Shown here one piece after another: positions 38,743-42,582 of a DNA stretch of 51,190 bases; position 1 is the first letter of the stretch, and every line of letters starts with the position of its first letter. The position numbers and the translations under genes were made by a program. The stretch spans positions 1 to 51,190 of the forward strand of contig BAAIJX010000095.1 in assembly GCA_054600435.1 (NCBI GenBank), read 5' to 3'. Below the pieces are notes generated by a model, which was not told the origin of the DNA, made no database searches, and worked only from the letters and a program-made list of their open reading frames with translations. Origin of the DNA: Neophaeotheca triangularis (Eukaryota).

Positions 38743-38986
38743 AATCTGGGTTGAAGGGAGTTCAGTAGGTCTGCTAATGACGATTCGTTGGAACTTGTTG
38801 TATGACTTTGATGGGAAGAGAGCATGAGATGAGAGATGAGGTTCACGAACGTTGGCGGGGCAGCAGGGGTTGTTGTGTACGGACCACGTGCAAATTCAAA
38901 AAAAAAAGCGCCCATGTTTTCTTGTCCTCTTTTCTAACGTACCATCATCACACACCCCAACTTCATCACCCAACAATGTCCCTCTC

Positions 38987-40039
38987 ATGCCAACGGTGAA
39001 AGTCTTCTTCATCCGCCATGGCGAAACTGTAGACAACGTCGCCGGCCTGTACGCAGGGGTACGCGACAGCGCTCTCACCAACCATGGCGTGGACCAAGCC
39101 CAACGTCTAGGCTCCTACCTTGCTCGCGAAAGCGTCAAGCTCACTCACATCTTCTCCTCACCCTTGCAAAGGACCTTGAAGACTGCTGAAGCAGTGCGTG
39201 CTGCTCAGCCGAGAGGCGAGGATGGCACTACGACGCTGGACATCAACAAGGTGCCGGAGCTGATTGAGCAGGATTTTGGCTTCTACGAAGGTAAACCCTT
39301 TTACACTCGCTCCGCTAGCAGTCCGAGAAAGAGCGGGAAAGATATGCATCGCGAGAGGCATCGAGATGAGCCTGGGTTTGTGGATGTCGAGAGCAAGGAG
39401 TCGATGGCTAAGCGTGCTGATACCTTTTTGGACCAACATCTGCTGCCGCTGTTGGATGTGGATCAGCGAGAGGACCTGACTGTTGCTCTCGTTTCTCATG
39501 GCATGCTCTTGTCGAGTCTTTGGAAGAGGTTGCTGCTGAGATTGCCGAAGAAGAGTTTGAGTATCGCACCGGCTGTCATCGCTGCTCGGGGCGAGATCAT
39601 ACTCGAGCACCTTGGCGGTTGGAGCAATACGGGTTACCTTGAGCTCGTGCTCGCTGCCGAACCGGAGAATGACAAAGTCCATCCACTCGTCAAAACGATT
39701 GATTGTCCGAACCCCAACAGTTCCGGCGACACTACTGCTAATAAGTCTTTAGGGGGTGGACTTTCAGAACAGGCGGAGTCCGTCTCAACTTCTTCCGAAC
39801 CAGCCGTCGCGCTTGATACACTTGCTCCACCGCCAGCTGTCGCCGAGATGCAGGAAACGGCGGATCCGAATGTCCGTTCTATCCGCGTGCTGCAGGGCTG
39901 GTCGACTAGTATCGTTGCTATTGATAGCAAGCAGCATTTGACCGGCCTGAAAAGGCAGCGAGGAGGCATCGGTCGGCTTGCGTACGATGAAGGCCAGAAG
40001 AAGCTTGACGGCTTTTTCAAGAAGCAACGTAAGACTTGA
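38987..40039 (+). CDS. Histidine phosphatase / phosphoglycerate mutase-like protein, ~350 aa
   Basis: FIRHGETVDN, SSPLQR, EQDFGFYEG, LVSHG motifs. Confidence 0.9.
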   Translation: MPTVKVFFIRHGETVDNVAGLYAGVRDSALTNHGVDQAQRLGSYLARESVKLTHIFSSPLQRTLKTAEAVRAAQPRGEDGTTTLDINKVPELIEQDFGFYEGKPFYTRSASSPRKSGKDMHRERHRDEPGFVDVESKESMAKRADTFLDQHLLPLLDVDQREDLTVALVSHGMLLSSLWKRLLLRLPKKSLSIAPAVIAARGEIILEHLGGWSNTGYLELVLAAEPENDKVHPLVKTIDCPNPNSSGDTTANKSLGGGLSEQAESVSTSSEPAVALDTLAPPPAVAEMQETADPNVRSIRVLQGWSTSIVAIDSKQHLTGLKRQRGGIGRLAYDEGQKKLDGFFKKQRKT

Positions 40040-40171
40040 CAGTCTCGATCCGTGGCGACATCACGGATATGTTCGCTGCGGGCCGACGGCGTGGAATAGT
40101 CAAGCAATCGACCTCACGCCGCACCCGGCACTTGGTGAGTACTATCGTCTTTCTTAACCCTGCCCCCACCT

Positions 40172-40253
40172 CGTATGATGAAGCAACAATAACACAGACC
40201 TGATCCGAACTACAACCATGTAGATTCACTATTGTCCAACTGCTGTCTGATAC
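40172..40253 (+). ncRNA. snR56: Intronic box C/D snoRNA, snR56/U25-like, with a second (25S) guide
   Basis: C box ATGATGA 40175-40181; guide CACAGACCTG (40193-40202) complementary to conserved 18S CAGGUCUGUG, then D' CCGA 40205-40208; guide GTCCAACTGCTGT complementary to conserved 25S ACAGCAGUUGGAC directly before D box CTGA 40247-40250; GTA/TAC closing; lies inside a GTGAGT(40135)...GCTAAC...TAG(40321) intron. rRNA sequences recalled from memory. Confidence 0.85.
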
Positions 40254-41017
40254 CCACACCGACACTATCATTTATCTCGCGCCAGCGCTACTTGCGGTTC
40301 ACGGCTAACAGCGCATTCTAGATGCTCTCAAGTTCTCAACGTCTGGCAAAAGCAAGGTTCGGTCTCGTGTGGCGCGAAAGCTGCAGGTTTAGGCATGCAA
40401 GATGAAGCGCTGTCGGTCGGTGCCCGATGAACACGACTGCTGAGGCTTGCGGCATTGTCGGACAGCATGGTAGCAGATTTGTGTAGCGTACGTAGATGGC
40501 AGGAATCTAATAGTTTTTGACTCCCGACTCATTTGTTTCCGATGATCTGTTTTGACTTGATAACAATGATGACTCAACGAGTTTCTCCAACTACCGTGAG
40601 CATAATAAGAATATTCCCCATTTCCGATGTCCGTATCCATAGGTGGGTATATGTGTCGACGCTACAGTTGTACGGGAGAATAATAAAGTTCATCATCTCC
40701 CCCGAACCTCAGATATCCGGGTAGGAACTACTGGGGCAACGGCTTGCTCCAAACACGTTAGCGCGCGGGTCGGATGTTGCTGTGGCTGCGTTGCCGGCCA
40801 CGCACCAGCCACTTCCCGCACAAAGCTAAGTCAATAAAGATGGTGGTTAACCTTTAGGGTTGGCCCGCCGCCTGAGTCCGAACTTGTTCATTAGCGACTA
40901 CACCTCATCAACACCATCTAAAACAACTCTCGATTCTCACTCACACACACTAGGGCATGAAACAATCCAGGCGAGTAAGTAATAGGCAAGTTCCTTGCGG
41001 GCGGGTAAGTGAGTGGC

Positions 41018-41078
41018 TATGGTATGGTATGGTATGGTTATGCAGTGTGCCTTGCATCGCTGGCAGCACAGCACAGCA
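41018..41078 (+). repeat. (TATGG)4 and short (GCACA)n microsatellites
   Basis: tatggtatggtatggtatgg at 41018-41037; gcacagcacagca at ~41066-41078. Confidence 0.7.
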
Positions 41079-41550
41079 TAGTACAGTGTGCTGCAGACAC
41101 CCTCGTACACACTGCAGGCACACGTTGAAACATGGCGTATGGCGTCTTAGTATGTAAGTTATGAGAGAGACCACACGTAGACTAGCCTCACCGGTAGCAC
41201 GACACTAACGTCGTAGCAAAAGTTGGCGCAGGTGAGTTTAAAAAGTGCCTTCTCGGTGGCCGGCCGGACAAGGTGGCTGGGCTGCCTCAGGTTAGTGCGC
41301 TAGCGGCAGGGCTGCAGGCTGCTCCTTCCCTTCTATAAACATTTAGGTACCCTTTGATTTTCATACACTCCCTCTCTTGCTAAACCTCTCTTTCTCACCT
41401 TCACCTTCACCTTCAACAACAACAACACATATCACAACAACTCCTCCATCCCCATACCAACCACATTCGTTACCGTCGTCCATCTCCAACGAGCATATCC
41501 TCACCTTCACTACTACTTACTCCACTACCCACAAAACTCCCTCCTCCACC

Positions 41551-42582
41551 ATGCGCTTCAGCATCTGTCTCGCCATTGGCGCTGCCGCCTTCGCTGCTGC
41601 CCACGAGGCCGACGACTGCGACTACGACAACAAGCCTGAGCAGCAGCACCAGGAGCAGCAGCACGAGCCCGCCACCGTCACCATCACCAACTTCGTGACC
41701 GTCACCGACTGCGATGTTCCGGGTGAGTGCGAAGAGGAATCTGATGCCCAGTCCAGCACTAGCACAGCACATATCGCACAACGCGCTCCCCAACAAGAAT
41801 CCCCTCCCTCACAAGCCTCCACCTCCCTCGCTGCACTTAGCATCTTATCCAATGCACTCTTTACCACTACTGCATCACCAAATGCATTCGATGTGCTAGA
41901 GTCTGCCTTGGGCAGCTACACTCAGCCTTCACTGCAAACATCCTTCCCTGCTGCCCTGTTCTCCTCGTATGGCCTGGGAACCCCTGTGGACAGCTTAGCT
42001 TCCGTGTCAGGAACCGCGCAAACGGATGGCCCACAGACTTTCACCCCCACGGATACCCCCACCGCTTCACCCCCTTCCACCCCTCCCTCCACGCTCATCA
42101 CTTCCGTCTCCCCCTTGCCAGCGAGCGGCAGCACCTTGATCGTGCTAAGCTCATCTTTGTCTGCTACAGGTGCCACCCCGGTTCCGGTCGAGACCGAGAC
42201 CGTCGACGTCCCTGCCGAGGAAACCTCTGCGCCGGTCGACGTTCAGCCCACGGTCTCTGAGACTCTCCCTGTGGAACCCACCACCACTGAGGAGGTCGTC
42301 GTTCCCACCATGACTGAGACCGTGCCTGACGTCCCCGCCACCACCACAGAGGTCGCCACTCTCACCACGGCTACCGGCACTACGACCACCACCGAGGCCC
42401 CGGCTGAGGAGACTAGTGATGAGCTTGAAGGTGAGCAGACCCCATCCAGGACTTCCAGTGCTCCGGACGCAGCTACAACTACTCCAGCTCCCGTTGCGCA
42501 AGAGGGCGCCGGCAACCTCAACTACCCCATCACCACCATGGCCGCCATCATCGTCGGTGCTGGTGCGTTCTTGCTCTTCTAG
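41551..42582 (+). CDS. GPI-anchored Ser/Thr/Pro-rich cell-wall protein; 343 aa unspliced or 194 aa if 41723-42169 is spliced
   Basis: Signal peptide MRFSICLAIGAAAFAAA; Thr/Glu/Pro/Val-rich stalk; GPI-type C-terminus EGAGNLNYPITTMAAIIVGAGAFLLF; TATAAA at ~41334. Confidence 0.85.
   Translation: MRFSICLAIGAAAFAAAHEADDCDYDNKPEQQHQEQQHEPATVTITNFVTVTDCDVPGECEEESDAQSSTSTAHIAQRAPQQESPPSQASTSLAALSILSNALFTTTASPNAFDVLESALGSYTQPSLQTSFPAALFSSYGLGTPVDSLASVSGTAQTDGPQTFTPTDTPTASPPSTPPSTLITSVSPLPASGSTLIVLSSSLSATGATPVPVETETVDVPAEETSAPVDVQPTVSETLPVEPTTTEEVVVPTMTETVPDVPATTTEVATLTTATGTTTTTEAPAEETSDELEGEQTPSRTSSAPDAATTTPAPVAQEGAGNLNYPITTMAAIIVGAGAFLLF

Follow-up and report, generated by a model that had tools for sequence, protein, structure and literature searches.

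A probable intron-encoded box C/D snoRNA with two rRNA guides, a Dothideomycete-like orthologue of Nc CD41 from the snR56/U25 family

The stretch of DNA analyzed here (hereafter the window, 51,190 nt) carries a histidine-phosphatase-like open reading frame followed on the same strand by a predicted intron, and inside this intron lies a box C/D snoRNA sequence with two antisense elements. The features of the locus, in window positions, are the following:

38987 to 40039, + strand: open reading frame of 350 aa, histidine phosphatase (phosphoglycerate-mutase-like), Pfam PF00300 with E 6.6e-31; probable host gene of the snoRNA intron
40135 to 40321, + strand: predicted host intron of 187 nt, with signals GTGAGT at 40135-40140, a CTAAC branch site at 40305-40309 and AG at 40320-40321
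40171 to 40254, + strand: box C/D snoRNA of about 80-84 nt, found by Rfam snR56 and by our own model R1
40175 to 40181, + strand: C box AUGAUGA, read directly; its column is invariant in alignment A1, where it was also part of the search pattern
40193 to 40202, + strand: D' guide CACAGACCUG, forming a 10-bp duplex with 18S CAGGUCUGUG; C40200 selects the first G (snR56/U25 site)
40205 to 40208, + strand: D' box CCGA, aligned to CUGA of the Rfam snR56 consensus
40219 to 40224, + strand: C' box UGUAGA; A1 shows conservation of its T, G, G and A columns, which played no part in the selection
40233 to 40246, + strand: D guide UGUCCAACUGCUGU, forming a 14-bp duplex with LSU ACAGCAGUUGGACA; G40242 selects the second C
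40247 to 40250, + strand: D box CUGA (CTGA in the DNA), read directly

The general marks of a box C/D RNA, namely an RUGAUGA C box at the 5' end, a CUGA D box at the 3' end and a terminal stem, are all present. The stem is short, with only 3 bp (GUA with UAC) formed by positions 40173-40175 and 40251-40253. A guide should also have at least 10 nt of antisense before D or D', with the target opposite the fifth base, and such elements lie before both boxes: they form 10 bp at D' and 14 bp at D with the rDNA of contig L152, which belongs to another organism. An intronic location is indicated by the GTGAGT, CTAAC and AG signals, which are spaced as in the relatives described below. Folding showed no stable structure in the 187-nt intron (z = +1.8).

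Two spacer bases lie between the D' guide CACAGACCTG and the D' box CCGA. The fifth base 5' of CCGA is C40200, whose partner is the first G of 18S CAGGTCTGTG. The D guide, read as (T)GTCCAACTGCTGT at 40233-40246, adjoins its box directly; here the fifth base is G40242 and its partner is the second C of 25S ACAGCAGTTGGAC (also written ACAGCAGUUGGAC). We took CCGA as the D' box because it aligns with CUGA of Rfam snR56 and falls in a column that reads C[CT]GA across 24 environmental relatives. The CCGA form itself occurs in 10 of these 24 and in Nc CD41, a box C/D snoRNA of Neurospora crassa. Another candidate for the D' box, CTGA at 40200-40203, was dropped: it is situated inside the guide, leaves a duplex of 7 bp and conflicts with the family alignment. 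The initial annotation, made from the letters of the window, had reported C, D' and D boxes with two antisense elements and had chosen CCGA as D'. Direct reading bears out these boxes and their register and finds the C' box too, and both alignments agree with the choice of CCGA. Positions 40171-40254 are read as a real and, very probably, functional box C/D snoRNA, an orthologue of Nc CD41.

The complementarity of the guides was assessed on rDNA of other eukaryotes. We obtained it by searching a collection of prokaryote genomes with primer NS7, a fungal primer that exactly matches eukaryotic rDNA stretches in at least 40 bacterial or archaeal assemblies or MAGs (L118-L157). These stretches are evidently contaminant contigs; one of the records is titled UNVERIFIED_CONTAM. 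In contig L152, from a species other than that of the window, Rfam marks SSU, 5.8S and LSU. It contains the D' guide target CAGGTCTGTG, the target G lying 372 nt from the 3' end of the SSU. Over 14 nt, beginning at the base that adjoins the D box, the D guide is perfectly complementary to L152 ACAGCAGTTGGACA, and the target C corresponds approximately to LSU nt 1496, within the Rfam LSU match.

Both assignments of the initial annotation agree with these registers. It had directed the D' guide to the first G of 18S, the site of snR56/U25, and this is also the residue given for Nc CD41 (18S-Gm1423) in the accessible part of Liu et al. 2009 (PMC2780460). It had directed the D guide to the second C of 25S, and the Nc CD41 duplex printed in the same part of that paper has the same residue. 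Its statement that SNORD5 serves this position in vertebrates holds as well, as far as the available passages of two papers go: SNORD5 is mgh28S-2409 (PMC13664452), and 28S-Cm2409 is assigned to SNORD5 (PMC8393311). The site was also said to be outside the S. cerevisiae set, and indeed no homologue of the 26S-Cm1489 guide is listed for S. cerevisiae or S. pombe in the accessible part of PMC2780460.

Are these sites peculiar to one lineage? In the passages available from Hoeppner and Poole 2012 (PMC3511168), the 18S site is common to Arabidopsis (Gm1431), human (Gm1490) and yeast, and the LSU site is common to Arabidopsis (Cm1510) and human (Cm2409), without a yeast entry. The name of the human guide for the LSU site differs between sources, being U49 in the part of PMC3511168 consulted and SNORD5 in those of PMC13664452 and PMC8393311. 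Since the LSU position is listed as methylated in Arabidopsis and human, it would be an old eukaryotic site rather than a lineage-specific invention. The initial annotation had proposed one RNA with two guides and a lineage-specific 25S Cm; the two guides stand, while the lineage specificity gives way before Arabidopsis Cm1510 and human Cm2409 as listed in those passages of PMC3511168. The 25S Cm looks like an old eukaryotic site that has been kept in filamentous fungi and is missing in the two model yeasts.

Relatives were collected by a metagenome scan whose pattern consisted of the C box, the D' guide and the C[CT]GA D' box only and disregarded the D guide. The scan gave at least 121 matches at a minimum of 117 loci. 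The matches were sorted by the bases preceding a D box 25-85 nt downstream, with this result among the matches listed:

CAACYGCTRT, the window's D guide: 25 of 121 matches, 24 distinct (18 CTGCTGT, 7 CCGCTAT)
CATGCACCACT: 27 matches, 16 distinct
TTGGAGACCT: 18 matches, 15 distinct
GTTGCCTTCCTT, snR52-type: 7 matches, 7 distinct
None of these: 44 matches, 42 distinct

The last class includes L032, which is cut off by the end of its locus, and evident chance matches in GC-rich sequence. We take CATGCACCACT to pair with the snR55/U33 site of 18S and TTGGAGACCT with the snR62/U34 site of 25S. For most copies of CATGCACCACT, the record name of the contig suggests sea water as the source. Read from these matches, the second guide that accompanies the snR56-type D' guide varies from organism to organism, in keeping with the published "clan", and the guide pair of the window is a common version among the matches listed.

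In all 25 matches of the window's class, CAACYGCTRT sits directly before a CTGA. The C box, the D' guide, the D' box and the 10-nt D-guide core were selection criteria, and their conservation in the alignments is therefore circular. This does not apply to the base 5' of the D-guide core, which the selection left free. Among the 25 aligned sequences (window included), 21 have C and 3 have T there, and both bases pair with the G of the rRNA. The spacers have drifted within the class, with a mean column identity of 67%. One further locus, L067, keeps the host-gene tail and the snR56-type 5' half, but its D box is preceded by TGTCCAAATACTGG; the 25S guide of this possible class member may have decayed.

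Family membership was evaluated with Rfam and with a model of our own. At gathering thresholds Rfam gave no match anywhere in the window. At permissive thresholds snR56 (RF01188) was the sole match at E <= 0.1 in the 51-kb window, so that no other snoRNA was found there at this level; it covers 40171-40252 with 39.8 bits (E 0.045). The whole model aligned, and its D' guide ACACAGACCUG to the 18S G1428 site is identical in the window. In 39000-42000, Rfam searched up to E 10 gave no match to the SNORD5/U49 families, and it is the target site alone that is shared with them. The comparison with Rfam that the initial annotation had suggested thus recovered snR56, at a score below the gathering score of 54 bits, and gave no match to a SNORD5 family. 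Model R1 is a sequence-only model built from the 24 environmental relatives with the window left out. On both strands of the 51-kb window it gave a single match, at 40174-40252 (+), with 51.6 bits and a rough E of 3.6e-15.

If the Rfam score of the window is low, then we can ask: Is this a property of the copy or of the model? Rfam snR56 at E <= 0.01 listed 15 of 20 related double-guide loci, with 40.2-48.7 bits, and none of them reached 54. Because the relatives are also below the threshold, the low score reflects the model rather than the window copy. With the gathering score as cut-off, this double-guide subfamily escapes the Rfam snR56 model, as the window and all 20 tested relatives fall short of it.

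The same score has a bearing on whether the locus is a silent relic, that is, a snoRNA-like sequence which is no longer expressed or processed. Such a reading could point to the 39.8 bits against a threshold of 54, to the terminal stem of only 3 bp and to the RNA-type runs X3 and X4, whose short pieces fall within the coding region (39296-39870) and leave 39905-40900 uncovered; as these runs consist of contigs only, the gap carries no weight in either direction. We consider it very improbable. The relatives that share the low scores have just been described, and all four boxes and both guides of the window are intact. The intron signals and the spacing of the branch site are like those of the relatives: a motif resembling a 5' splice site (GTRNGT) occurs 28-74 nt upstream in 18 of 25 relatives (36 nt in the window), and YTRAY follows the extracted snoRNA end, set 4 nt beyond the D box, by 36-62 nt in 22 of 25 (50 nt in the window).

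Comparison with X2, a second sample of the same organism, speaks in the same direction. It showed 22 differences in 39909-40900 and none in 40144-40269, which contains the snoRNA. About 1.9 differences would be expected in the 84-nt snoRNA, and the variation-free stretch is consistent with constraint, although zero is not significant (P ~0.15). Between the two samples the downstream region varies more than the CDS, where 10 differences were counted in 38903-39868. Of the other runs compared over 38900-40900, X1 shows no difference from the window and may be where this DNA comes from, and X4 has one joint that "goes back", located inside the CDS. Positions 40322-40700 are the presumed downstream exon; this part has no Rfam match and contains a AATAATAAA stretch near 40680.

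The second guide can be compared with its target across organisms. The CCGCTAT guides pair with the LSU form AGCGGTTGG, present in L120 and N. crassa, and the CTGCTGT guides pair with the form AGCAGTTGG, present in L152. Contig L120 carries ACAGCGGTTGGACA, which is the form printed for N. crassa in the accessible part of PMC2780460. Judged from sequence comparison, the variants of guide and rRNA target go together. The D guide of the window would pair with either LSU form, with one G-U pair in the form of L120 and N. crassa.

This covariation bears on the suggestion that only the 18S guide works, the RNA being a plain snR56/U25 orthologue and its 25S complementarity either an accessory pairing (for rRNA folding or snoRNP docking) or functionless. 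Methylation of the LSU C in any filamentous fungus was not found in the parts of the literature examined, and in yeast, according to the available passages of PMC3116282, snoRNAs including snR56 have additional conserved complementarities with no role as methylation guides. However, most of the accessory pairings in those passages do not adjoin a D or D' box, while the complementarity in the window starts immediately 5' of a canonical D box and places a C at the fifth position. The C so selected is the residue listed as methylated in Arabidopsis and human (PMC2780460 and PMC3511168, accessible parts). Moreover, the D guide is kept in 25 of the 121 independently selected relatives among the matches listed, and it co-varies with the rRNA variant. 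An RNA with a working 18S guide only is in our opinion quite unlikely.

The lengths of the two duplexes raise the converse question. In the window the 18S duplex comprises 10 bp, is flanked by A-A mismatches on both sides and is the shortest of 25 sequences compared; the 24 relatives have 12 bp (13 sequences) or 13 bp (11 sequences). Position 2 before D' is A in the window and T in 24 of 24 relatives, and this position was free in the search pattern. The 25S duplex of the window, with its 14 bp, is among the three longest of the 25. Besides, N. crassa has two guides for 18S-Gm1423, CD19 with 13 bp and CD41 with 12 bp, as given in the accessible part of PMC2780460. These data could mean that only the 25S guide is active and that the 18S (D') guide is eroding, the 18S site being covered by a second snR56-type snoRNA like Nc CD19. 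Yet the 10-nt core of the D' guide is intact and the 51-kb window has no second match to model R1. For box C/D guides, a 10-bp duplex with six G-C pairs is approximately the minimum that still works; the 18S duplex of the window has exactly this length and six G-C pairs, and so lies near the working minimum. We therefore regard the loss of the 18S function as unlikely, somewhat less so than the loss of the 25S one, and retain the reading with two working guides.

Turning to the gene in which the snoRNA is placed, the open reading frame at 38987 to 40039 ends with a stop codon 95 nt before the 5' splice site of the predicted intron. Its homologues span 99% of it and reach the C-terminus. The nearest named ones, with 51-59% identity, come from Dothideomycetes including Teratosphaeria, Friedmanniomyces and Hortaea. 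Synteny was judged from 300-nt flanks of 27 related loci, namely L032, L067 and the 25 that belong to the class. The conserved C-terminal tail of this same phosphatase-like protein was encoded on the same strand, ending 50-191 nt before the C box, at 20 of the 27, and a motif resembling a splice site lies between its stop codon and the snoRNA in 19 of these 20. At the Neurospora-like locus L083 the snoRNA is plainly behind a phosphatase-like ORF. In some loci the distance from stop codon to splice site is only 4-45 nt. This leaves no space for a promoter and a first exon of a separate gene. The simplest reading of this arrangement is that the snoRNA intron lies in the 3' UTR of a histidine-phosphatase-like mRNA, the ORF of the window being its probable host gene.

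The published passages on these snoRNAs that were accessible to us do not state a 3'-UTR relationship with a phosphatase-like host. For N. crassa, the accessible part of PMC2780460 describes H/ACA RNAs that reside in the 3' UTR of a "phosphoglycerate mutase-like" gene. A link to these RNAs was considered and dropped, as the coding sequence at the end of the printed Nc ACA16 is, by eye, a different one. The same was done with Nc ACA10, whose start is unlike the 200 nt after the intron in L083, also by eye.

The C-terminus of the host protein itself (window 39998-40039) has the pattern Q-x-x-[ILVM]-x-x-[FY]-[FLY] followed by basic residues; in the window it reads QKKLDGFFKKQRKT and ends at the stop. 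The motif was present in 21 of 21 recovered C-terminal tails. Besides the window, these come from the flanks of L010, L013, L023, L032, L034, L057, L059, L065, L067, L068, L069, L072, L073, L077, L083, L084, L092, L098, L105 and L107. It resembles what we take to be the consensus of the PCNA-interacting (PIP) box, and a PIP-box-like motif would be unexpected on a phosphoglycerate-mutase-like enzyme.

Taken together, we hold with good confidence that the locus encodes an intronic box C/D snoRNA, a Dothideomycete-like orthologue of Nc CD41 which combines the snR56/U25 family guide with a second guide. The snoRNA would be released from the spliced 187-nt intron in the 3' UTR of the histidine-phosphatase-like mRNA, trimmed to its C/D terminal stem and packaged with the usual box C/D proteins, i.e., fibrillarin/Nop1, Nop56, Nop58 and Snu13. 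The element before D' would then pair with 18S and direct 2'-O-methylation to the first G of CAGGUCUGUG (Gm1428 in yeast, Gm1490 in human). The element before D would pair with 25S/26S, for which the stretch ACAGC(A/G)GTTGGACA is required, and direct 2'-O-methylation to the second C of ACAGCAGUUGGACA (Cm1489 in N. crassa, Cm1510 in Arabidopsis and Cm2409 in human).

A further-reaching scenario, which we find doubtful, joins the shortened 18S duplex with the position of the gene. In it two snR56-type paralogues divide the work between them, a process that would be in progress here, and the snoRNA has long been kept in the 3'-UTR intron of one particular histidine-phosphatase-like gene, the one whose protein has the PIP-box-like C-terminus. 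Residence there would tie the production of the snoRNA to the transcription and splicing of the host mRNA, and possibly to its decay. Its 18S guide would have shrunk to the 10-bp core and its 25S guide would have grown to 14 bp. The window copy may now be chiefly a guide for an ancient LSU Cm that is absent from the model yeasts.

For our preferred reading, an orthologue of Nc CD41 with two working guides, the gain is one unannotated snoRNA gene added to a fungal genome; the biology itself is textbook. The LSU Cm common to plants and animals is only predicted in filamentous fungi, and our literature search found no RiboMeth-seq study of a filamentous fungus. The gene offers a clean deletion target for testing this methylation.

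The two-guide design and both of its targets have been published for N. crassa in 2009 and are not new. According to the accessible part of Liu et al. (PMC2780460), Nc CD41 (EU780964) is an intronic RNA of 72 nt from chromosome II, obtained as a cDNA clone. There, its D' guide is assigned to 18S-Gm1423, with snR56 of S. pombe and S. cerevisiae, Arabidopsis snoR19 and human U25 as homologues. Its D guide is assigned to 26S-Cm1489, with Arabidopsis U49 and human mgh28S-2409 listed and neither yeast represented. The sole evidence code for Nc CD41 in Table 1 of that paper is "C" (cDNA clone), and the 26S Cm is only predicted in N. crassa.

Among other known systems, the fungal snoRNAome (PMC5824354; details are in its Supplemental Section S9) groups snR56 with snR52 in "clan CD_19", and by the passages available from it the design of the Nc CD41 type belongs to this snR52/snR56 clan. 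Nc CD19 and other snoRNAs of clan CD_19 resemble the window RNA in C box, D' guide and overall construction, while their D element guides other sites or is absent. Human SNORD5 (mgh28S-2409) and Arabidopsis U49 address the same LSU position as the window RNA (accessible parts of PMC2780460 and PMC3511168). However, they are separate snoRNAs, and a sequence relationship to the window RNA was not detected (Rfam E <= 10). Yeast snR56 (RF01188), human U25/SNORD25 and Arabidopsis snoR19 (RF00054), united in clan CL00049, share the D' guide and the 18S target with the window, whereas the yeast snR56 consensus has a U-rich stretch before the D box where the window RNA has its 25S guide.

Nc CD41, as printed in the accessible part of PMC2780460, is the system that shares most of the design. 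It is intronic and of similar size (72 nt as cloned versus about 80 nt in the window), has a CCGA D' box and a UGURGA C' box (UGUGGA in Nc CD41, UGUAGA in the window), and has the D guide GUCCAAC...CUGA, both targets and the duplex registers of the window RNA. The two differ in the D guide, which is CUGCUGU in the window and CCGCUAU in Nc CD41, following the A or G variant of the rRNA. They also differ in the lengths of the duplexes, with 14 bp in the window versus 12 bp at D and 10 bp versus 12 bp at D'. The spacers are unrelated (the printed sequence was compared without an alignment tool). The environmental locus L083, compared by eye, differs from the printed Nc CD41 in one base. The window RNA in its turn has both elements that define the Nc CD41 type: its D' guide is of the snR56 type, and its D guide selects the LSU C that corresponds to Nc 26S-Cm1489.
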